This document shows, one piece after another, positions 26,979 to 39,705 of a stretch of 64,000 nucleotides of DNA. This DNA is from Promethearchaeota archaeon (GTDB taxonomy: Archaea; Asgardarchaeota; Lokiarchaeia; Sigyniarchaeales; SOKP01): positions 1 to 64,000 of the forward strand of contig JBHLOC010000007.1 of assembly GCA_048940925.1 (NCBI GenBank). The letters are read 5' to 3'. The number at the start of each line of letters is the position of its first letter. The first letter of the stretch is position 1. The notes under the pieces are model-generated. The model was not told the origin of the DNA. It saw nothing but the letters and a program-made list of their open reading frames with translations, and did not search any database. The position numbers were made by a program, and so were the translations under genes.

Positions 26979-27905
26979 ATGAATGAACAGTATCGATCAT
27001 TGTATAAAAACTCCAAATTAGATGAAAACACAGCATGCCGGTCTAGCTGTTGTGATAATCCATTCATAGAATCTCGAGATGGAAATAAGGTATGTCTCAA
27101 TTGCGGGGTAATATTTGAAAGGACATTTGTTGGAAATGAGAGGAGAGCATATACAGTCGAGGAGATACAGAATCGTAGAAGGACTGAACCTCGTTGGCGG
27201 GATTTCGGACCCAGAACAATGCTTCCAAACACGAAAACTGATAGTAAAGGCAAGTCAATTGGTGCAAAGGAGCAAGCACTTTTTTCTCGTCTTTCTAAAA
27301 TCCAAAATTCCTTAATTTCTAGTATAGAAAGAAATTTCTGGGAAGCAAAACCCAAATTAAAAATGCTTACATCAAAATTAAATATCCCAGAATATATAGC
27401 AGAAACTGCATGGAAAATATATAGCATAGTAGCAAAGAAGAAATTAACAATGGGAAGATCAATTAATGGATTTATTTCAGGTTCATTGTATGCTGCTATA
27501 CGTGTACATGATTTTCCGCGATTATTAGATGAAGTATGTGAAGCATCTTTAACACCAAGGAGAACAGTCCATAGGAGCTTGGCTATGATAATTAGGGAGG
27601 TTTTGCCTGAATTAAAATTAAGATATCAACCAATTACCGCAGAGAGTTTAGTTTTTCGTTTTGGCAATGAGTTAGAATTACCAATTGCAATCCAAAAAAA
27701 TGCAATCAATATGTTAAAAAACGCTTCTAAGAATGGATTGAAAAGGACTGGTAAGGATCCAAAAGGTTTAGCCGCGGCTTGTATATATATCGCAGCTAAG
27801 AAAGGTTCTATTCGAAAAACTCAATCTAAAGTAGCAGATGTCGCTAAAATTACTGAGGTCACCTTACGATCTCGAGCAAAGCAAATAAAAAGTAAATTAT
27901 TATAA
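26979..27905 (+). CDS. tfb: Transcription initiation factor IIB (TFB)
   Basis: Zn ribbon (CC..CLNCG), B-reader 'ERRAY....RRRT', two cyclin repeats 'GRSI', 'GKDPKGLAAACIYIA', 'TQ..VA..A.ITEVTLR'. Confidence 0.95.
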   Translation: MNEQYRSLYKNSKLDENTACRSSCCDNPFIESRDGNKVCLNCGVIFERTFVGNERRAYTVEEIQNRRRTEPRWRDFGPRTMLPNTKTDSKGKSIGAKEQALFSRLSKIQNSLISSIERNFWEAKPKLKMLTSKLNIPEYIAETAWKIYSIVAKKKLTMGRSINGFISGSLYAAIRVHDFPRLLDEVCEASLTPRRTVHRSLAMIIREVLPELKLRYQPITAESLVFRFGNELELPIAIQKNAINMLKNASKNGLKRTGKDPKGLAAACIYIAAKKGSIRKTQSKVADVAKITEVTLRSRAKQIKSKLL

Positions 27906-28653: not shown

Positions 28654-29616
28654 TTGACGAATCACGAGAAAAATAATCTGGAAATCTCAACTTGTGAACA
28701 TCGGAATGTAAGACAAGAAGGGGGTCATATAGTTTGCCAAGATTGTGGTCTAATTCTGGAAGAAAAAGCGTTTGGTAAAACAGTACCTCGAACTGAATAC
28801 TATACTGATTCACAGAGGGATTATGAAAGAAGAATAAGGATGAGTGATTCAAAAGCCCTCCAGGATCCTAAAATAAAAGAAAAATATGAAAGAATTAAAA
28901 TCCTCGAGAAGTGGTTCCGAGATTATCAGTCAGATTTTTCAGAGCAAAAAAAAACAATTGATTTACTAAAAAGCCATGGAATGGGATTAAATATTGATAA
29001 TGTAAAATACCAAACAATAAAAGATCGATATCTTAGATTTAACAAATATCATAGACATACTTATCAAAACATGGTTATTATCTTTTTAGCTATTGTTTGG
29101 ATGGAGATTAAGGATACAACAAATATACGCTTAGAAGAGTTTATTGCAGTCTCACGAGAGTTTGGTCATAAGATTAATAAAAAAATGCTGAATAATGCAA
29201 TGTTAAAAATAAAAAAAACAGAGCGAATGTTAAAAGAAAAGAAAAATATTAGGGATTTAGAAAAAGAGATTAAATCTCGAATAAAAATTGTATTTCAAAA
29301 AGATTTAAATAGCATTCCATTTGAAGCTGTTAAAAAATCTATTTTAACTAAACAAGAATATGTAAAATTAAAGATTGAAATGCAACTTTTAGCAGATAAA
29401 CTATTAAATAAAGTTTCATATGAACAAATTCAGAATTTAAATTATAAAGCGTTTGCAGCAGGTTTAATTTATTATATTGGACAAACTCTAGATAATAAAA
29501 AAATATTTACCCAAAATCTTATCGAGAAATATAGTAAATTCTCAAGTACTACAATTAGAAAAAAATACCATACCTTAAAAGAGATTTTGGGTAAACCTGA
29601 AATCTCCAAATTCTAG
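28654..29616 (+). CDS. Divergent TFIIB/cyclin-fold protein with an N-terminal Zn ribbon
   Basis: 'CEH.....GHIVCQDCGLIL' ribbon; C-terminal 'AAGLIYYIG....TQ.......SSTTIRKKY' like the TFB second cyclin repeat/HTH. Confidence 0.7.
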   Translation: MTNHEKNNLEISTCEHRNVRQEGGHIVCQDCGLILEEKAFGKTVPRTEYYTDSQRDYERRIRMSDSKALQDPKIKEKYERIKILEKWFRDYQSDFSEQKKTIDLLKSHGMGLNIDNVKYQTIKDRYLRFNKYHRHTYQNMVIIFLAIVWMEIKDTTNIRLEEFIAVSREFGHKINKKMLNNAMLKIKKTERMLKEKKNIRDLEKEIKSRIKIVFQKDLNSIPFEAVKKSILTKQEYVKLKIEMQLLADKLLNKVSYEQIQNLNYKAFAAGLIYYIGQTLDNKKIFTQNLIEKYSKFSSTTIRKKYHTLKEILGKPEISKF

Positions 29617-29707: not shown

Positions 29708-32587
29708 ATGAGTTATTCAATAGTTGATCATAAAAAAACAGAAATGACTTATTATACTCAACCGATTGATGCTTTAATAGAATCTTTTAAAACGGATCAA
29801 GATCAAGGATTAAATTCTGATGAATTGAATGAAAGGTATCAAAAATCAGGATTTAATGAATTACCTAAAATTAAAAAATCGATTTGGAAGATATATCTTG
29901 CTCCTATTTTTAATTTTTTAATCCTAATTCTTATTATAACTGGCGTAACTGTTTCTATTTTAGGTTCTCTAGAGGAAACAGTTTTAATTTTTACCGTTAT
30001 TATAATTAATTCTGCTACTGTTATTATTCAACAATATAGAGCACAAAAAGCCTTAGAATCTTTAAGACAAATATCTGCATTAAAAGCTAAGGTAATAAGA
30101 GATGGGGAACAAAAAGAAATTCCAAACAGAGAATTGGTTCCAGGAGATATTGTCATATTAGAACAAGGTGATAAGATTCCTGCTGATGGTAGAGTCATAT
30201 ATTCTATTAATCTAACAGTAGATGAAGCACCATTAACAGGTGAAAGTGAGCCTGTAGAAAAGAATAATATGATGATAGAAAAAGATAAAGTACCTATTCA
30301 AGATCAAGCTAACATGTTATTCATGGGCACATATATTCATACTGGAAGAGCAAAGTCCTTAATTACAGGCACAGGATTAAACACTCAAATTGGTAAAATC
30401 TCTGTTACCTTAAATGAAATGGGGAGTATCGAAGATATTCCACTTACAAAGAAATTAAATCGATTAGGATATATTTTAGGAACTCTAGTAATAATAAGTC
30501 TAATTATATTAATTATTTATAAACTTAACATTTTACTTATTGAAGATAACTTTACTGAATCAACAGTTATTAATGCTCTTGTTAGGTCTATTTTGAGAGC
30601 TACAAATGTTGTACCCTTTAATTTGCCTTTATTATCAACTTTAGTATTAATAACAGGAATATTGGAAATGGCACAAAATGGTGTGATTATCAAAAATTTA
30701 TCAGCTATAGAATCTCTTGGTCGCGTATCTATCATTTGTTCTGATAAAACAGGAACTATAACAAGAAATGAGATGACTGTGGAAAAATTTTGGATAAATA
30801 ACGAAGAATATGATGTGAGTGGAACTGGATATGAACCAGACGGTGAGATTTCTAAGAATAATAAAATTTTAGATTTAAATAATAATCCAACTTTCCAAAT
30901 ATTCATCAATTCTATAGTTCTCAATAATAATGCTAAACTTATCTATGAAGATGTTAAAGTAAAGACTAGAGATAGGACAGAAATAGCTGTAAGACGCGCC
31001 TTAGGATCACCTACAGAAGCAGCCTTACTTGTATTAGCAGAAAAAGCAAGATATACTATTTATGATCTTAAAAAACAATACGATCTGATTACAGAATTTT
31101 CTTTTAATTCTGAATTAAAACGAATGAGTTCAATATATAGATTTAAAGATGAAGGCGATAATATATCTGTATATTCAAAAGGAGCTCCTGAGAGAATAAT
31201 AAATATATCCTCTCATATAGAAATAAATGGAGAAGTCAAACCATTTAATAATGAAATGAAAGAATTTATTTCTGAAAAAATCAATGCTCGTGCCATAGAG
31301 GGATATAGAACCTTAGCCCTTGCTTATAATACTTTAAATGATATTTACTCACCAAATAGAGCTGATATCGAGAATAATTTAATTTTTTTAGGATTTGTAT
31401 CAATTATGGATCCACCTCGAGTTGGAGTCGAAAAGTCTGTTGAAGAATGTGAGGATGGTAATATAAAAGTTATTATGATAACTGGAGATCATCCCGCTAC
31501 AGCTAAAACTATTGCTACTCAAATGGGAATTTATAAAGAAGGAAATATCGTAGCAGAAGGTTTTCAAATAAAAGAGCTAAAACCAATTGATTTTGAAAAG
31601 GTGTCTGTATTTGCTCGTGTAGAGCCTTCTGATAAAGAAGTTATTGTTGAAAGATATCAATCTGAGAATCATGTTGTGGCAATGACAGGAGACGGAATAA
31701 ATGATGCTCTTGCGCTAAAATTAGCTAATGCTGGTATAGCAATGGGAATAACTGGGACGGATGTAGCTAAAGAAACAGCTGATATGATAATATCAAATGA
31801 TGATTTTACCTCAATCGAAAAAGGAGTGAGAATTGGACGTGGAATTTTCTCTAAGATTCGAACTATAATTTACTTTTTTATATGTTTAAACATAATGGAA
31901 GCAATTGTATTTTTTGGTTATGAATTTTTACCTACCTTTGAGTTATTTAGTTCAGATTGGCAACATATCTATATTTTTGGCATTGTTCACTCTTTTCCTT
32001 CATTAGCATTAGTACTTGATACACATCCTAAAGATATTATGCATGAATCTCCCCGAGATGAAGAAGAACTATTAAATAAAAATATTTGGATTTTATTACT
32101 AATACAAGTATTCTTAATGGGATTAGGGCTAATATTAGCAATACAATTAACAATAGGTGGCTTTATTCCTTTAAATGAATGGAATTTAAATCCACATATT
32201 AGCTATATATCTACAGATTCAACAACTGAAGAATTATTAGCCCAAAAAGCTAGGACAATGTTTATAACAACTTTATATATAATAGAGACAAACTTTATTT
32301 GGTCTATTAGAAGACCAAATAAATCGATTGCGAAGAGCTTAAAAGAGGAATTAAGTTATACAGTTTTAATAGTGTGTCTTTTTACATTAGTATTACATAT
32401 CCTGCATATTTGTTTTTCTTTTGTAGTGAACTATTATATAAATGATATCAGTGGTTTAAATTTTCAAATAAATTTCATGTTTCTCAGTGGTACTGACTGG
32501 TTAATATGCATCCTGCTTGCTTTACCAGGTATACTAGGAATTGAATTAGTAAAATATTTTGCTAGAGTCCGAAAAATAAGATTTTAG
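29708..32587 (+). CDS. P-type ATPase, P2A/SERCA-like scaffold with atypical membrane site (PFNL)
   Basis: TGES, DKTGT, KGAPE, DPPR, TGD, GDGIND; TM4 VVPFNLP; TM6 GIVHSFP. Confidence 0.95.
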   Translation: MSYSIVDHKKTEMTYYTQPIDALIESFKTDQDQGLNSDELNERYQKSGFNELPKIKKSIWKIYLAPIFNFLILILIITGVTVSILGSLEETVLIFTVIIINSATVIIQQYRAQKALESLRQISALKAKVIRDGEQKEIPNRELVPGDIVILEQGDKIPADGRVIYSINLTVDEAPLTGESEPVEKNNMMIEKDKVPIQDQANMLFMGTYIHTGRAKSLITGTGLNTQIGKISVTLNEMGSIEDIPLTKKLNRLGYILGTLVIISLIILIIYKLNILLIEDNFTESTVINALVRSILRATNVVPFNLPLLSTLVLITGILEMAQNGVIIKNLSAIESLGRVSIICSDKTGTITRNEMTVEKFWINNEEYDVSGTGYEPDGEISKNNKILDLNNNPTFQIFINSIVLNNNAKLIYEDVKVKTRDRTEIAVRRALGSPTEAALLVLAEKARYTIYDLKKQYDLITEFSFNSELKRMSSIYRFKDEGDNISVYSKGAPERIINISSHIEINGEVKPFNNEMKEFISEKINARAIEGYRTLALAYNTLNDIYSPNRADIENNLIFLGFVSIMDPPRVGVEKSVEECEDGNIKVIMITGDHPATAKTIATQMGIYKEGNIVAEGFQIKELKPIDFEKVSVFARVEPSDKEVIVERYQSENHVVAMTGDGINDALALKLANAGIAMGITGTDVAKETADMIISNDDFTSIEKGVRIGRGIFSKIRTIIYFFICLNIMEAIVFFGYEFLPTFELFSSDWQHIYIFGIVHSFPSLALVLDTHPKDIMHESPRDEEELLNKNIWILLLIQVFLMGLGLILAIQLTIGGFIPLNEWNLNPHISYISTDSTTEELLAQKARTMFITTLYIIETNFIWSIRRPNKSIAKSLKEELSYTVLIVCLFTLVLHILHICFSFVVNYYINDISGLNFQINFMFLSGTDWLICILLALPGILGIELVKYFARVRKIRF

Positions 32588-32686
32588 CTATATTTCAATA
32601 ATTACAGAAGAAATTATATTTTTTGTGAAATTAGAAATATCATACAAAAACTTAAATTAAGTAGAAAAAAACTAAAGTGAAAAAAC

Positions 32687-33511
32687 ATGTCTAAAGATTT
32701 CAATAACAATTCGGAAGAAAATAAAGAAATCGTCATGAAATATGGAGGGATAACCGTTATAGCTTCAATTCTAGTAATTTTTATCATTTTGGCTGTTTTT
32801 AATATCAATTTTGGACAATGGCTTGCAGATTCTATTATGTGGTTTTATAGGAATTATGGAGTTATTGGAATTTATATAGGAGTTTTTCTTATTAGTATTT
32901 TTGGAAATTTCACAGTAATTTTTCCAGTTCCTTATGTAATTGCACTTATTGTAATTTCTGCTGTTTTAGGTACTGTGAATCCTATAATGCTTGGTTTATT
33001 TGGGGCACTTGGAGCGAGTATCGGAGAAGTATCAGCATGGTTGATTGGTCGAGGATCTCAAAAAATAATAGGTGATAGCGATAGAATTGAACACATGAAG
33101 AAATATATAGAATTAGGTTGGGCTCCTGTTATAATTTTTATATTTGCGGCAACTCCACTTCCTGATGACGCTTTTCTAATCGTTCTGGGAATTGCAGAGT
33201 ATAGTATCATAAAAACCCTCATATTTACATTTATCGGCAAGTTTGTTCTTTGCTTTTTATGTAGTGCCCTCCCAATATGGTTTGCAGATACCACTTTTGG
33301 CAATTTTTTATTTAATTTATTTGGAATCAATCTTGAGGCTGCGCGAACTGGAGTGATTCCCCCTAATTCTCCAATTGATATTTTAGGTAGTTCATTAGTA
33401 TGGGCAGCAACTATAATCATCATGTTTCTATTAGTTTATATCGATTGGGGAAAAATTTTTAAAAAGTTAAAGAAGAAAAAAGATTTGAACAAAAGAAATA
33501 AAGAAATTTAA
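32687..33511 (+). CDS. DedA/VTT (SNARE_assoc) family membrane protein, VMP1-like
   Basis: 'FPVPY', 'GASIGEVSAWLIGRG', 'FAATPLPDD', 'FIGK'. Confidence 0.88.
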   Translation: MSKDFNNNSEENKEIVMKYGGITVIASILVIFIILAVFNINFGQWLADSIMWFYRNYGVIGIYIGVFLISIFGNFTVIFPVPYVIALIVISAVLGTVNPIMLGLFGALGASIGEVSAWLIGRGSQKIIGDSDRIEHMKKYIELGWAPVIIFIFAATPLPDDAFLIVLGIAEYSIIKTLIFTFIGKFVLCFLCSALPIWFADTTFGNFLFNLFGINLEAARTGVIPPNSPIDILGSSLVWAATIIIMFLLVYIDWGKIFKKLKKKKDLNKRNKEI

Positions 33512-33675
33512 AATAAATAACGGATAATCAGATATTCAATTATATTTTTTCTAAAATTATCTAATGAAAAAGTAATAAGTTAAAAATTATGATTATTATA
33601 GTTAATATTATTATATTGAGACAATTTAGATTTTAAATCTCTTTAATCAATTTTAAAAATTATAGAAGACTCCTT

Positions 33676-36558
33676 ATGATAGCTCCAGAAGAGAATTTTT
33701 ATAATCTTGCTCTAGAGCAAATTTACCAAAACCTTAAAACTGATCCTAATAAAGGATTAACTGAGCAAGAAGCCAAAGAACGTTTAGAACAATACGGGTT
33801 AAATGAGGTTCCAAAAGTATCGAAAGGATTTATTAAAATATATTTAGCACCTTTATTTAATTGGTTAATTGTGATATATCTAATAGGGGCGCTAATCCTG
33901 TTTTTAGCAGCTATTTTTGGTGGAGGAGGGAATTTAATATTCATCCTATTAACTTTATTTATTGTCTTACTTAACTGTGTAGTCGCTGTCATTCAACAAT
34001 ATAGAGCAACTAAAAAATTAAAAGCATTAAGAGAATTATCAGCCCCCACTTCCATGTTAATCAGAGAAGGACAAAAAAAAGAAATTCCTACTAAAGAAAT
34101 TGTAATAGGAGATCTATTAGTCTTAAATCAAGGAGACAAAATACCTGCTGATGCGAGAATTATTGAATCTAACAACTTAGTAGTCAATGAAGCTTCATTA
34201 ACGGGAGAAAGTGAACCTGTGAGAAAAAATGAAACAGGAGAACCTTTAGATAAAAAAGATATTGCTATTGGGCAACGTAGCAATATGGTGTTCTATGGTA
34301 CTTACATAACAACAGGAAATGGAAAATCAATTATTGTAAAAACAGGAGGAGAAACTGAAATTGGAAAGATATCACATGGCTTAGAGGAAGCAGGAACTAG
34401 TGAAATTCCTATTAGAAAAAAAATGAATAATTTTGGAAAATGGTTAGGTTTAATAATTTTTGGCTTCTGGTTTCTTATATTACTAATTCTCTGGGTTGTA
34501 AGAGGAGAAGCCAATATCGTCCAAAGTTTGAATTCTGCACTCGATCTTATGCCAATCAATTTACCACTGCTCACAATTATTGTCTTGATTACGGGAGTAG
34601 TAGCTATGGCACATCATGGCGTTATAATTAGAAATTTAGCATCAGTTGATAGTTTAGGAAGAGTAAGTATAGTATGTTCAGATAAAACAGGTACTTTAAC
34701 GAAAAATCAAATGAGCATTCAACACGTTTGGACAAATGGTTCTATTTTTAGAGTTACGGGCAGTGGTTATTCTCCTGAAGGGGAAATCATTTTGATGGAT
34801 GATCTTAAAAATCCTGTCTATGTAAAGCATATTGATGATTATCCTCATCTTAAATTGTTACTCACCTCAGGATTTTTAAATAATAATTCAGCATTAGTAA
34901 AAAATGAGATTCAACTCTCTGGTAAAGCAATTCCTAAATGGGATGTTATAGGTTCACCAACAGAAGGAGCTTTAATGGTTTTATTTCAAAAAGGAATGGG
35001 AGATTATGTATTAGATGATTATAAATCTGTAAAAGAATATCCTTTTGATTCGTCAGTGAAAAGGATGACAAAAGTCTATGAAAGGGATCTCTCTTACTTT
35101 TCATTTACAAAAGGGGCAAGTGAAATTTTAATCCCTTTATGTTCAAAAATAATATATAACGATGTTGAAATTGATTTCAGCGAAGAAATTAAAGCAAAAG
35201 TTACTGAAATTGTAAATCTTTATGCTAATCAAGGATATAGAATATTGAGTTTATGTTATAAACAAATGGAATTCAAACCACCCAAAGGGGAGGAAGGAAG
35301 AGAAGTTTGTGAATCAAACTTAATTTTTATTGGTTTTGTAACAATATTAGATCCCCCAAGAGAAGGAGTTAAAGAATCGGTAGATCAATGTCACGAAGCG
35401 GGAGTAGATGTCATAATGATTACTGGTGATTCTCCTTTAACAGCTCGAGCAATCGCAAACCAGATTGGGATAGTATCAACTGAGAATGATCTAGCAATAG
35501 AAGGAAAAGATATTCAAAATTTCAAATCATTTGATGAATTTAAAAATATTAAAGTATTTGCTCGAGTTTCTCCAGAACATAAGGAAGATATAGTTGAGAA
35601 ATATCAAGAACAAAAAAAAGTAGTTGCTATGACAGGCGATGGGGTTAATGACGCTTTAGCGTTAAATATGGCAGATGCAGGGATCGCTATGGGAATCATG
35701 GGAACTGATGTAGCTAAAGAAGCCTCTGACATGGTAATCTCAGATGATTCATTTAACTCAATTGTAACCGGTATTCGTCATGGAAGGGGTATATTTGCAA
35801 GAATCCGAGCAGTGGTATTTTTTTATATTTGTATCAATGTATTTGAGGGGATAGTTCAATTTATTTTAGCAATCATTTTAGATTTACCTTATTTTTTAGA
35901 TGAGGCATTTTATTTACAATGGGTCTTCTTAGGATTAACTCTACATGTATTTCCTGGCTTAATCCTTACTTTTGATACTACACCTAGCGAAGTTATGGAG
36001 GAGAAACCTCGTGATTCAGAAGAAATCCTATCTCGAAATATTATTTATCTTCTGTTCGTATTTGGAATATTACTTGCAATAAGCATGGTGATCGTTTATT
36101 TTATAAATATGACTGGAGTATATCCTGTTTTTAATGAAAATTGGAATTTTGGTAGCTTAAATAAAGCTTATCTCTACTCATTAGAAAATGTTGACCTAAA
36201 TCCATATAATGTTGAATTAATAGAAGCAAAAGCTCTTACTATGCTAATGGTTACCATATTTTTTTGTGAATCATTTCTCGTATTTCAAATCAGGCGACCC
36301 AACAAATCTCTAATTAGAAGTTTGATAGAAGATAGCAATAAACGTATGTACTTGATAATTGGAATTCTCTTTGCAGTTTTTATAATGTTAATGTATATTC
36401 CCGGTTTTCAAGTGGGATTAGCATCTGCTGGATTAAATTTTATGTTTATGTTTCTAACAGGTTTAGATTGGTTAGTATGCTTTTTGATTTCACTAATCTG
36501 CATTGTTTCATTCGAGATTGTTAAATATATAGCACGTAGATATGGTATTACGTTTTAA
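33676..36558 (+). CDS. P-type ATPase, P2A/SERCA-like scaffold with atypical membrane site (PINL)
   Basis: TGES, DKTGT, KGASE, DPPR, TGD, GDGVND; TM4 LMPINLP; TM6 LTLHVFP. Confidence 0.95.
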   Translation: MIAPEENFYNLALEQIYQNLKTDPNKGLTEQEAKERLEQYGLNEVPKVSKGFIKIYLAPLFNWLIVIYLIGALILFLAAIFGGGGNLIFILLTLFIVLLNCVVAVIQQYRATKKLKALRELSAPTSMLIREGQKKEIPTKEIVIGDLLVLNQGDKIPADARIIESNNLVVNEASLTGESEPVRKNETGEPLDKKDIAIGQRSNMVFYGTYITTGNGKSIIVKTGGETEIGKISHGLEEAGTSEIPIRKKMNNFGKWLGLIIFGFWFLILLILWVVRGEANIVQSLNSALDLMPINLPLLTIIVLITGVVAMAHHGVIIRNLASVDSLGRVSIVCSDKTGTLTKNQMSIQHVWTNGSIFRVTGSGYSPEGEIILMDDLKNPVYVKHIDDYPHLKLLLTSGFLNNNSALVKNEIQLSGKAIPKWDVIGSPTEGALMVLFQKGMGDYVLDDYKSVKEYPFDSSVKRMTKVYERDLSYFSFTKGASEILIPLCSKIIYNDVEIDFSEEIKAKVTEIVNLYANQGYRILSLCYKQMEFKPPKGEEGREVCESNLIFIGFVTILDPPREGVKESVDQCHEAGVDVIMITGDSPLTARAIANQIGIVSTENDLAIEGKDIQNFKSFDEFKNIKVFARVSPEHKEDIVEKYQEQKKVVAMTGDGVNDALALNMADAGIAMGIMGTDVAKEASDMVISDDSFNSIVTGIRHGRGIFARIRAVVFFYICINVFEGIVQFILAIILDLPYFLDEAFYLQWVFLGLTLHVFPGLILTFDTTPSEVMEEKPRDSEEILSRNIIYLLFVFGILLAISMVIVYFINMTGVYPVFNENWNFGSLNKAYLYSLENVDLNPYNVELIEAKALTMLMVTIFFCESFLVFQIRRPNKSLIRSLIEDSNKRMYLIIGILFAVFIMLMYIPGFQVGLASAGLNFMFMFLTGLDWLVCFLISLICIVSFEIVKYIARRYGITF

Positions 36559-36635: not shown

Positions 36636-37169
36636 ATGTTAAAGGGAAATAAAGTAACACTTGGACCTGTTAAGAGAGAATATATTGACGATTATTTAAG
36701 ATGGATGAATAACCCGGAAGTTACTCAATATCTAAAAATTTATAGTCCACTAACAAGAGAAATGGAAGAAGATTGGTATAATAGTCTGAAAAATCGTGAT
36801 GATTTTTTTCTTTTTGCAATATTATTGGCTAACCAAGATGAACCCGAGACGCTCCTTGGCAACTGTTCTATAGGTGTGGATTGGAAAAATCGTGTTGGGA
36901 CTTGTGGGATTGTAATTGGAGAAAAGATATACCAGGGTAAGGGATATGGAACTGAAGCAATGGAATTACTTGTTAATTATGGATTTATTACTTTAAATCT
37001 CAATAGAATACAACTAGAAACTTTTAGTTTCAATAAACGTGCCTTAAAATCATATCAAAAAGTTGGATTTAAAGAGGAGGGAATTCGACAGCAAGCTATA
37101 TATGTGAACGGTAAGTATCACGATGCTATTATGATGGGAATCTTGAAAAATGAATGGCAGAAAATATAA
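36636..37169 (+). CDS. GNAT acetyltransferase, RimJ/RimL family
   Basis: 'YQGKGYGTEA', 'N.RA...YQKVGF..EG..R'. Confidence 0.92.
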   Translation: MLKGNKVTLGPVKREYIDDYLRWMNNPEVTQYLKIYSPLTREMEEDWYNSLKNRDDFFLFAILLANQDEPETLLGNCSIGVDWKNRVGTCGIVIGEKIYQGKGYGTEAMELLVNYGFITLNLNRIQLETFSFNKRALKSYQKVGFKEEGIRQQAIYVNGKYHDAIMMGILKNEWQKI

Positions 37170-37223: not shown

Positions 37224-38270
37224 CTACTTTTCTAATTCTATAAAGTAAGGGATTATTTTATCTTTAAAAATTTCATATACCTTATTTACATCAGGGCCTC
37301 GATTCATAAAAGAGAAATGTATTACTCCAGCACTCCTAAATTCTTCTATTTTTGCAATAACGTCTTCCGTGGTTCCAACACAATTCATATCTTCAATAAT
37401 TGACTCTGGAAGAAGATCTACACTCCCAATTAATTCTGCAGCACCTTCACTGTCCATGAGAAAATTATGTATTGTTAATTCCTCGGGCAGATTCAAATTT
37501 GGATATGCTTGGTTTGTTTTCATGGGATTAACTAAATATGATGCTCTAAAAAATTCACACCTTTTTACCGCCTTTTGAGGATCTTCATCATCTATTGCTA
37601 CAAAACAGTTTAAAACATAATCAATTTCTTTAGGATCCCTTCCAATTTTTTTAGCTCCTGCTTTAACTTCATTACAATTGTCTTTATAAGTTTTTGGTGT
37701 TTCAACAATCGGATACCATCCATCACCTAATTCTCCGGTCAAGAATCGTGTTTTGGTACTATTGGCAGCCACATATATAGGAGGTGTTTTTTGAATTGGT
37801 TTTATTTGAATATAAGCATTTTTCATTTTACCCCAAAACTCACTGTTCGCATTAACTGTTCTTTTTATCCAAAATTTCCTTAAAAGTTCTATATATTCCC
37901 GTAACTTGGTAATAGATCTTTTTCTGGTAAGACCATATATATCAACATTCATTGCTTCTCCTGCTCCAATCCCAATCATAGCTCTCCCATTAGAGATTAC
38001 ATCTAAGGATGCCACTTTATGAGCCATGAGTGCGGGGTGAAATCTATGACAATCTGATACTCCAGTACACAACTTAATTTTACTAGTTTCCATTGATAGA
38101 GCTGTTAAGAAAACAAAAGCATCGAAACACCTACCTGGACCCGGAGGCAACATTGTCGTATGGTCTGCATAAAAAACTGTATCAAATCCACATGCTTCAG
38201 ATCTTTTTACCCCCTCAATCATATACTCCAAACGGGGTGTAGGAACTGGAATTGAAAATGAAAATTTCAT
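37224..38270 (-). CDS. LLM-class (luciferase-like, probably F420-dependent) oxidoreductase
   Basis: 'GFDTVFYADH', 'SLDVISNGRAMIGIGAGE', 'PPIYVAA', 'DGW'. Confidence 0.9.
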   Translation of the reverse strand: MKFSFSIPVPTPRLEYMIEGVKRSEACGFDTVFYADHTTMLPPGPGRCFDAFVFLTALSMETSKIKLCTGVSDCHRFHPALMAHKVASLDVISNGRAMIGIGAGEAMNVDIYGLTRKRSITKLREYIELLRKFWIKRTVNANSEFWGKMKNAYIQIKPIQKTPPIYVAANSTKTRFLTGELGDGWYPIVETPKTYKDNCNEVKAGAKKIGRDPKEIDYVLNCFVAIDDEDPQKAVKRCEFFRASYLVNPMKTNQAYPNLNLPEELTIHNFLMDSEGAAELIGSVDLLPESIIEDMNCVGTTEDVIAKIEEFRSAGVIHFSFMNRGPDVNKVYEIFKDKIIPYFIELEK

Positions 38271-38373: not shown

Positions 38374-39705
38374 ATGAGTAAATCAAAAGTTGCTATTGTA
38401 AAGTATGAGAAACCTCTTGAATCAGTTAGGAAGTTAGTTGATTTAGTAAATTTATTCGATGATATCCCCAAAGATGCAAAAGTATTCATTAAGCCCAATA
38501 TAGTTTATTGGAATAGATTTTCCAACTTTCCAAAATGGGGAGTAATTACAACATCTCGCGTTATAGAAGATATTGTTGTTCTGCTTAAAGAACGAGGAAT
38601 AGCCAATATTTCAATTGGAGAAGGGATTGTAACGGGAGGTCCAAAGGATACAGATACCGCAGCTGATGCATTTGAGAAACTTGGATATAATCTTCTTAAA
38701 GAGCGATATGGCGTAAAACCAATTAACACATTTTCGCGTCCATTTGAGAAGATAGATTTAAATACTGGTTTTAATGTCAATTTTAGTACTGATGCGCTAG
38801 CCGCTGATGTTGTTATAAGTGTACCTGTATTAAAAACACATGCTCAAGCTGTTGTATCTTTAGGAATTAAGAATTTAAAGGGATTAATCAATATAGCTTC
38901 TCGTAAAAAATTTCATAGTGCTGATCCTGTTAAAGACTTGCACCATAACGTAGCTCAATTACCTAACAAATTAAAAAAGGTACTAACAATCATTGACGGA
39001 ATTTATACCCTCGAAAGAGGGCCTGCCATTGATGGGAAACCTCATAGGAAGAACATTTTGGTTGCATCAAAGGATATTTTTTCTGCAGATATGATTGGTA
39101 CTAAATTATTAGGCATAGAAACTACTAATGTACCTCATTTAGTTCAAGCTGCTAAAGATAGAAATAGACCTTTAGATTTATCAGACGTTGAAGTTGTAGG
39201 TGAAAATTTAGAAGATTTAGCTTCACATCATGAATGGGATTTCATTTATAATGATAGCGGGGATCTTCCACTTCCTTTAATGAGAATAGGCGTAAAAGGA
39301 TTAAAATATCATAAATATGATAGCACATTGTGTACATCTTGCTCAGGAATTAATGGAGCCTTGTTAATGATTATCAAAGGTGCCTGGCAATCGAGGAAGG
39401 GTAAACCATTTGATAATGTTGAATTTCTAAACGGCAAACTTCAGGAACCAACTCCTGGTATGAACAAAACCATTCTAATTGGTCAATGTCAATATAATAA
39501 AAATAAAGATCATCCAGATATCAAAGAAATGATTCCAATCAAAGGGTGCCCTCCTTCGATGGAAGATGTTAGACAAGCATTTAGCCAAATCGGTATTGAA
39601 CTTCCATCAGCAATGGTTCAAAATATGGACAAAGGTGTGGGATTTCTTATGGCAAAGTATAAGGGAAGACCAGAATTTGAAGAGGCTTTTTTCCAAATAA
39701 CATAA
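38374..39705 (+). CDS. DUF362 domain-containing Fe-S protein
   Basis: 'VFIKPN', 'PVLKTH', 'SLGIKNLKG', C-terminal CTSC...GQC...GCPP. Confidence 0.85.
   Translation: MSKSKVAIVKYEKPLESVRKLVDLVNLFDDIPKDAKVFIKPNIVYWNRFSNFPKWGVITTSRVIEDIVVLLKERGIANISIGEGIVTGGPKDTDTAADAFEKLGYNLLKERYGVKPINTFSRPFEKIDLNTGFNVNFSTDALAADVVISVPVLKTHAQAVVSLGIKNLKGLINIASRKKFHSADPVKDLHHNVAQLPNKLKKVLTIIDGIYTLERGPAIDGKPHRKNILVASKDIFSADMIGTKLLGIETTNVPHLVQAAKDRNRPLDLSDVEVVGENLEDLASHHEWDFIYNDSGDLPLPLMRIGVKGLKYHKYDSTLCTSCSGINGALLMIIKGAWQSRKGKPFDNVEFLNGKLQEPTPGMNKTILIGQCQYNKNKDHPDIKEMIPIKGCPPSMEDVRQAFSQIGIELPSAMVQNMDKGVGFLMAKYKGRPEFEEAFFQIT

Follow-up and report, generated by a model that had tools for sequence, protein, structure and literature searches.

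What sets one P-type ATPase subfamily apart from another is its membrane site, and every new site has brought a new substrate, be it Ca2+, Na+/K+, H+, heavy metals, lipids, polyamines, or helices. Classes P1 to P6 were listed in a 2023 review by Palmgren, in which further prokaryotic families were expected (PMC10654040), and a survey of Asgard transporters reported only "putative Ca2+-ATPase" orthologues (PMC7997004). Here, we analyzed two P-type ATPase genes, A1 and A2, that flank a DedA-family gene in a 64,000-nucleotide stretch of DNA from a Promethearchaeota archaeon (hereafter "the window"; ~28% GC, with archaeal TFB genes nearby). An earlier note on this DNA had tentatively read the three genes as a lipid-moving system with a possible link to the origin of P4 flippases. 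The reading we favor, with some reservation, is that A1 and A2 are anciently diverged paralogues within an uncharacterised, apparently Asgard-restricted, P2A-derived clade (hereafter PxN/His), and that they are probably active, stand-alone, single-site pumps for a cation other than Ca2+.

Locus anatomy and membrane site

The locus consists of three co-oriented genes:

29708-32587, + strand: A1, P-type ATPase of 959 amino acids (aa), PxN/His clade, A1 subclade (open reading frame (ORF), Pfam, NCBIfam, trees)
32687-33511, + strand: DedA/VTT-domain membrane protein of 274 aa, facultative neighbor of the pumps (ORF, Pfam, ESM Atlas)
33676-36558, + strand: A2, P-type ATPase of 960 aa, PxN/His clade, A2 subclade (ORF, Pfam, NCBIfam, trees)

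Gaps of 99 and 164 nucleotides (nt) between them, as claimed in the earlier note, were recovered upon re-measurement, and the catalytic motifs TGES, DKTGT, DPPR, and GDGxND were all found in both A1 and A2, along with a full P-type ATPase domain set (Pfam). The two pumps share 42% identity across their whole length. Their key residues, in transmembrane helices (TM) 4, 5, 6, and 8 and at the phosphorylation site, map as follows, with PFNL and PINL exactly at the positions previously given:

30614-30625, + strand: A1 TM4 motif PFNL, with Phe at the SERCA E309 position and Asn at the G310 position
34552-34563, + strand: A2 TM4 motif PINL, with Ile294 at the E309 position, then Asn295
31889-31903, + strand: A1 TM5 NIMEA, equivalents of SERCA N768 and E771 kept
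35836-35850, + strand: A2 TM5 NVFEG, with N721 and E724, the Glu being invariant in the clade
31988-31999, + strand: A1 TM6 HSFP, in which His761 replaces the D800-type Asp of P2 pumps
35944-35955, + strand: A2 TM6 HVFP, with His757, invariant in the clade
32285-32287, + strand: A1 TM8 Glu860, the SERCA E908 equivalent
36268-36270, + strand: A2 TM8 Glu865, 97% conserved in the clade
30743-30757, + strand: A1 phosphorylation motif DKTGT
34681-34695, + strand: A2 phosphorylation motif DKTGT

When A2 was aligned with HMMER to the solved Listeria Ca2+-ATPase, its Ile294 fell on the TM4 Glu and its His757 on the TM6 Asp. Both pumps lack a Ca2+ ligand at the E309 position (Phe or Ile), one of the central observations of the earlier note. 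In full, TM4 reads PFNLP in A1 and PINLP in A2, and TM6 reads GIVHSFP and LTLHVFP, respectively.

To place these residues in context, 1.84 billion proteins were searched exhaustively, with the top 150 cluster representatives visible, and the best representatives were aligned (152 sequences). About 40 clusters shared the TM4 pattern P-[I/F/V/L/W]-N-[L/I/F]-[P/V], the TM5 pattern N-x-x-E, and the TM6 pattern H-x-[F/L/W]-P; in condensed form, the TM4 signature of the clade is P-[I/F/V]-N-[L/I]-P. The edge of this signature was abrupt: the next-best search matches were already canonical, with PEGLP, N..E, and NLVTD. Column statistics were then derived for 31 PxN/His members and 112 canonical PEGL pumps. 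The TM6 His was found in 100% of the members, whereas Asp occupied this column in 92% of canonical pumps, and this Asp-to-His change, absent from the earlier note, is the most conserved feature of the clade. The E309 position was hydrophobic in every member (Glu in 99% of canonical pumps), and the following TM4 residue was Asn in 94% of members (Gly in 93% of canonical pumps). Within the clade, the TM5 Glu was invariant and the TM5 Asn conserved at 90%, Gln748 of A2 was conserved at 97%, and the N796 position held a non-ligand residue (Tyr, Phe, Val, or Gly). The acidic entry residue of TM2 (E109) was replaced by Gln in 87% of members, and a TM1 Gln by Pro in 90%. The clade also carries aromatic residues of its own in TM1 (Tyr56, 87%; Trp53, 68%), with further aromatics in TM6 beside the buried Glu.

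Compared with the Ca2+ pumps, these residues indicate that Ca2+ site II is destroyed, that the bridging Asp (D800) is now a His, that the site-I ligands are kept, and that a new Asn has been added. The non-Ca2+ site is real, and the P2-pump variant to which it belongs is new and apparently confined to Asgard archaea. The loss of the canonical ion ligands could also be read as a sign that A1 and A2 have kept catalysis but lost transport, acting as sensors or regulators or representing decaying duplicates. We consider this the least probable of the readings weighed here, and barely credible: the new-site residues are 90–100% conserved among representatives that are only ~35–47% identical to A2, A2 orthologues are 63–88% identical over ~80 species-level loci, and the catalytic motifs are intact.

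Separately, the clade has an extra segment of ~35 residues in the TM7–TM8 loop (A2 ~812-852; window ~36109-36231), predicted to form two short helices, with a terminal Lys conserved at 87%. Among canonical PEGL pumps, 88% lack this insert. The TM7–TM8 loop is where Na,K-ATPases bind their beta subunit.

Phylogeny, fold, and distribution

Family kinship was judged from the scores of curated models, with PEGL pumps as controls. Both pumps clearly exceeded the cut-off of the generic P-type model (TIGR01494, 280 and 295 bits vs 62), but reached no specific NCBIfam cut-off. The highest scores were obtained with the SERCA and PMR1 models (TIGR01116/TIGR01522), at 461/449 bits for A1 and 435/476 bits for A2, i.e., 60–65% of the curated P2A cut-offs of 703/798, while the control PEGL pump P0154 scored 732/778. 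These were followed by P2D, P2C/P2B, P3A, P3B, P5, and P1B models, with P4 far below. To this extent, the earlier note's view of A1 and A2 as non-Ca2+ pumps was supported: they score below every P2, P3, P4, and P5 model cut-off and belong to an uncharacterised clade of their own.

The closest solved relatives were the Listeria Ca2+-ATPase LMCA1 (E 6.5e-122) and SPCA1 (4e-113), along with Na,K-ATPases and SERCA. In trees rooted with P3A-like genes of the source genome as outgroup, the PxN/His clade was monophyletic (FastTree support 100; IQ-TREE quick SH-aLRT 100) and adjoined prokaryotic PEGL pumps, and both trees placed A1 and A2 in separate, well-supported subclades. A1 and A2 are therefore old paralogues, and a recent tandem duplication was rejected as their source.

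An AlphaFold2 model of A2 (pLDDT 81.5) showed the ten helices and the A, N, and P domains of the P2-type fold, which superposed on solved P2 pumps. Its best 50 Foldseek matches in the PDB were all P2 pumps (SERCA, SPCA, Na,K-, and H,K-ATPases), with TM-scores of up to 0.81 and no P4 or P5 structure among them. Because the source genome also holds one canonical PEGL pump, two P3A-like pumps (TM4 PVALP), and two CPC heavy-metal pumps, A1 and A2 are additional to the standard set. These five other P-type ATPases are located on contigs C82 (573-4367), C41 (261846-264842), C18 (140384-145288), C5, and C22 of the source genome (G000), for a total of seven.

Strong A2 matches were detected in 285 of 400 genomes of the source phylum (Asgard) and in 121 of 134 genomes of the source GTDB family, with one strong match each in most other Asgard families. 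Named relatives were labeled Loki-, Hel-, Thor-, Odin-, Hod-, Hermod-, Heimdallarchaeota, or Promethearchaeota, save for three metagenome-assembled genomes with odd labels (Nanopelagicaceae, Aerophobetes, and Korarchaeota; loci L049, L060, and L144). The "Korarchaeota" contig (L144) bears an Arf-family GTPase gene, and all three labels are probably binning or labeling errors. On this evidence, the PxN/His clade appears restricted to Asgard archaea.

Our literature search found no description of the PxN/His clade. This well-delimited group, found in most Asgard genomes, has an invariant TM6 His and has lost the E309/D800 pair, and since its rebuilt site is both conserved and undescribed, it is a candidate for a P2 scaffold with a new specificity, found in the archaea most closely related to eukaryotes.

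Comparison with other P-type ATPase families

A1 and A2 resemble the P2A pumps (LMCA1, SERCA, SPCA/PMR1) most closely. They share TGES, DKTGT, DPPR, GDGxND, the TM4 P-x-x-L-P frame, TM5 N..E, the TM8 Glu, and the ten-helix fold (TM-score 0.75–0.81). Unlike P2A pumps, they show E309 replaced by Ile or Phe, G310 by Asn, D800 by His, and the TM2 E109 by Gln, along with a lost N796 and the TM7–TM8 insert of ~35 residues.

The likeness to P4 flippases is limited to the hydrophobic residue (Ile, as in P4 PISL) right after the TM4 Pro. On this basis, and because DedA-family proteins are established to move lipids or polyprenyl phosphates, A1-DedA-A2 had been proposed to form a lipid or lipid-carrier translocation module, in which P4-like flippases would be coupled to a DedA scramblase or translocator. 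The pumps themselves argue against this. P4 flippases have DGET where A1 and A2 have TGES, and a TM5 Lys where A1 and A2 have N..E, so that a caveat already raised in the earlier note holds. A1 and A2 also retain two (near-)invariant buried Glu and a His in the canonical ion site, and we know of no such acidic site in P4 pumps. Their scores with the P4 model TIGR01652 were 105–108 bits against a cut-off of 431, and PxN/His pumps (89–113 bits) scored the same as control PEGL pumps (91–112 bits); the best 50 fold matches likewise included no P4 or P5 structure. Finally, CDC50/LEM3 (PF03381) had no match in the 100%-complete source genome, in a search without a positive control. With the likeness reduced to a single hydrophobic residue, neither the suggested link to an origin of P4 flippases from a P2 scaffold nor any evolutionary tie of A1 and A2 to P4 flippases is supported. 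Taken together with the gene-neighborhood data below, we regard the lipid module as very unlikely.

P5 pumps raise a different possibility, namely that A1 and A2 move an organic, polyamine-like cation in the manner of P5B, perhaps linked to the GNAT gene downstream of A2. The P5B TM4 motif is PPALP, i.e., with a non-acidic residue after the Pro, as in A1 and A2, and the clade-specific aromatics in TM1 (Tyr56, Trp53) and in TM6 beside the buried Glu would suit such a substrate. The GNAT gene follows A2 in 50 of 80 related loci, and its best NCBIfam match is a spermidine acetyltransferase (E 2.7e-15). This match reached only 57 bits against a cut-off of 218, however, and the best Pfam family is the RimJ/RimL-type Acetyltransf_3; the adjacency is part of a general synteny and absent from distant contexts. 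With the P5 model TIGR01657, A1 and A2 scored ~250 bits against a cut-off of 618, and PxN/His pumps scored no higher than control PEGL pumps (231–285 vs 243–270 bits). A1 and A2 also have a single Pro where the P5 TM4 motif reads PP[E/D/A]LP. We therefore consider a P5B-like polyamine pump unlikely.

Among the other classes, P3A H+-ATPases also have a TM4 without Glu (P-[I/V]-x-[M/L]-P) and pump via protonatable residues with no metal ion, which would be conceivable for a Glu/His site. Unlike in P3A, the proton-carrying TM6 Asp is a His in A1 and A2, which scored 338–348 bits with TIGR01647 against 615. P1B-4 (Co2+/Fe2+) ATPases bind a transition metal through a membrane His-Glu pair, but have a different topology and scaffold, with an SPC motif in TM4, and P1B models reached only 219–245 bits here. 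The P6 pump CtpE provides a precedent for a new function via D800 loss, its P2-like scaffold having another residue in place of the TM6 Asp (PMC10654040). It differs in that PEGL is kept and the TM6 residue is Ile rather than His (PMC10654040), and it is bacterial, not Asgard.

The DedA gene as a neighbor of the pumps

The middle protein matched VTT_dom (DedA family) at 36.4 bits, narrowly passing the Pfam gathering score of 33.9, and its nearest ESM Atlas clusters were VTT-domain proteins. Regulatory contact between VMP1 and SERCA is known from the animal endoplasmic reticulum, where the two share no operon. Here, a VTT-domain gene adjoins SERCA-like pump genes, but the adjacency is facultative and lineage-restricted. 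Across 80 related loci, of which ~70 had enough upstream DNA to judge, DedA adjoined the pumps or separated them in 7 of the ~70. On the A2 tree, these seven loci and the window formed four separate sister pairs.

Orthologues of this DedA (59–81% identical) were detected in 30 of 134 genomes of the source family. For 19 of these 30, the pumps flank the DedA gene, in three genera and three arrangements, a point in favor of the lipid module. The 11 others, from four other genera, are not flanked by a pump, and the two that were inspected both lie beside ProRS. Conversely, five genomes in which A1 and A2 directly adjoin, two of them complete chromosomes, have no DedA orthologue at all. At the phylum scale, pumps were found in 27 of 31 genomes of one family (f13) and DedA in 0 of 31, while another (f18) had pumps in 0 of 12 and DedA in 11 of 12, so that the phyletic pattern of DedA does not track that of the pumps. 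Overall, most pump-bearing genomes lack DedA, and so do the surroundings of the pump in seven distant clade members.

ATPase-DedA-ATPase is thus not a conserved module, and a conserved lipid-moving system built on it is not supported. The earlier note had itself named a DedA adjacency not conserved in other Lokiarchaeia as grounds against its proposal, and a synteny comparison across Asgard genomes gave precisely this result. These distributions suggest that DedA is a dispensable, lineage-restricted neighbor, which may be co-expressed with the pumps where present. This negative outcome is useful in its own right: a flippase-like TM4 and a DedA neighbor do not make a lipid system or a P4 ancestor, and a lipid-translocation story should not be spread from sequence alone.

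In family f18, DedA homologues (41–46% identical) are encoded in ORFs of 500–550 aa, e.g., L139:1338-2936 (-), whose additional half matched no Pfam family, and none of these genomes showed a strong PxN/His pump match. In the window, oligo-T runs follow the A1 and DedA stop codons, a weak signal in DNA of 28% GC. A promoter/terminator scan with sigma-70 models, uninformative for an archaeon, gave 56 hits vs 47 +/- 8 in shuffles, i.e., no excess, and an Rfam scan of the window found no RNA family.

The A1-A2 tandem

The gene order of the pumps themselves is much more stable, with A1 directly upstream of A2 in ~68 of 70 loci, usually 70–280 nt apart and with nothing between. A1 and A2 come from separate old subclades and have the same rebuilt site, and this kept adjacency could be explained if the two formed an obligate hetero-oligomeric pump. 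However, the tandem does not extend beyond one GTDB family; three complete sister-family genomes have their 3–5 paralogues dispersed, most other Asgard families have a single strong match, and the Helarchaeota relative of A1 is solitary. TFB, GNAT, LLM oxidoreductase, and DUF362 genes are also conserved in 39–59 of 80 loci. Because synteny in the family spans the entire stretch from TFB to DUF362, the adjacency of the pumps carries little functional weight. No P-type ATPase is known to require two catalytic subunits, and we consider an obligate A1 + A2 complex unlikely.

Small genes seem to have landed repeatedly in the A1-A2 spacer. In ~8 loci, a 179-aa Cys-rich C_GCAxxG_C_C protein (PF09719, 51 bits) is encoded in the gap instead of DedA, e.g., at L007:1218-1754 (+), and likewise in the gap of L003, L013, L018, L039, L048, L052, and L054. 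In another locus (L050:6784-8000, - strand), two ORFs of 119 and 164 aa lie between the pumps and have the look of an antitoxin/PIN-type pair.

Candidate function and substrate

What was observed above is the make-up of the genes, their place in the clade, the conservation of their residues, and their distribution; activity, a single-site stoichiometry, and a class of substrate are what we infer. With the full catalytic machinery kept, A1 and A2 are most likely active E1/E2 pumps. They would run the E1/E2 cycle with one substrate site, presumably built from the TM5 Asn and Glu, the TM8 Glu, the TM6 His, and the TM4 Asn. Two buried carboxylates and an imidazole argue for a cationic substrate rather than a lipid, and this substrate would be a cation other than Ca2+. 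The pumps would act as stand-alone genes, without DedA. In line with this, the genes stand alone in most lineages, and seven distant clade members are solitary, with no DedA, no adjoining second ATPase, and no recurrent neighbor, setting aside an unannotated 956-aa gene ~4 kb away in one locus.

Candidate substrates can be ranked from ligand chemistry and from analogies to the P1B-4 His-Glu site and to the protonatable pairs of P3A, and each is a guess. A divalent transition metal (Fe2+, Mn2+, Co2+, Ni2+, or Zn2+) may come first, although with odds clearly short of even. H+ might come second, as a somewhat weaker candidate. An organic cation such as a polyamine, ranked third, would be a long shot, and we would give another cation about the same small chance.

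Several observations weigh against these stand-alone, non-Ca2+ cation pumps as we picture them. Across the seven distant contexts examined, no metal-, proton-, or polyamine-related neighbor gene supports any choice of substrate. Hydrophobic residues at the E309 position are also found in lipid and polyamine pumps. As regards the restriction to Asgard archaea, only the top 150 cluster representatives could be seen, and non-Asgard members could have escaped notice. In addition, DedA has stayed with the pumps in three genera despite three different local arrangements, a persistence that could reflect a real, optional functional tie. A bolder reading would view PxN/His as a new Asgard subfamily that, convergently with eukaryotic P4/P5 pumps, turned a Ca2+-pump scaffold to a non-classical substrate, either an organic cation or the head group of a lipid or polyprenyl phosphate, with DedA as a partner that some Lokiarchaeial lineages use and others do without. 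We find this improbable, and retain single-site cation pumps as the preferred reading of A1 and A2.

Neighboring genes

Downstream of A2, the window encodes a GNAT protein (Acetyltransf_3; 36636-37169, +), an F420-type luciferase-like oxidoreductase (37224-38270, -), and a DUF362 protein (38374-39705, +). These three genes are kept after A2 in 39–50 of 80 related loci, and are not found near distant clade members. Upstream of A1, a full TFIIB/TFB gene (26979-27905, +) is followed by a 320-aa ORF (28654-29616, +) whose match to TFB is confined to the N-terminal zinc ribbon (E 1.3e-4), and both are conserved upstream of A1 in 49–59 of 80 related loci.

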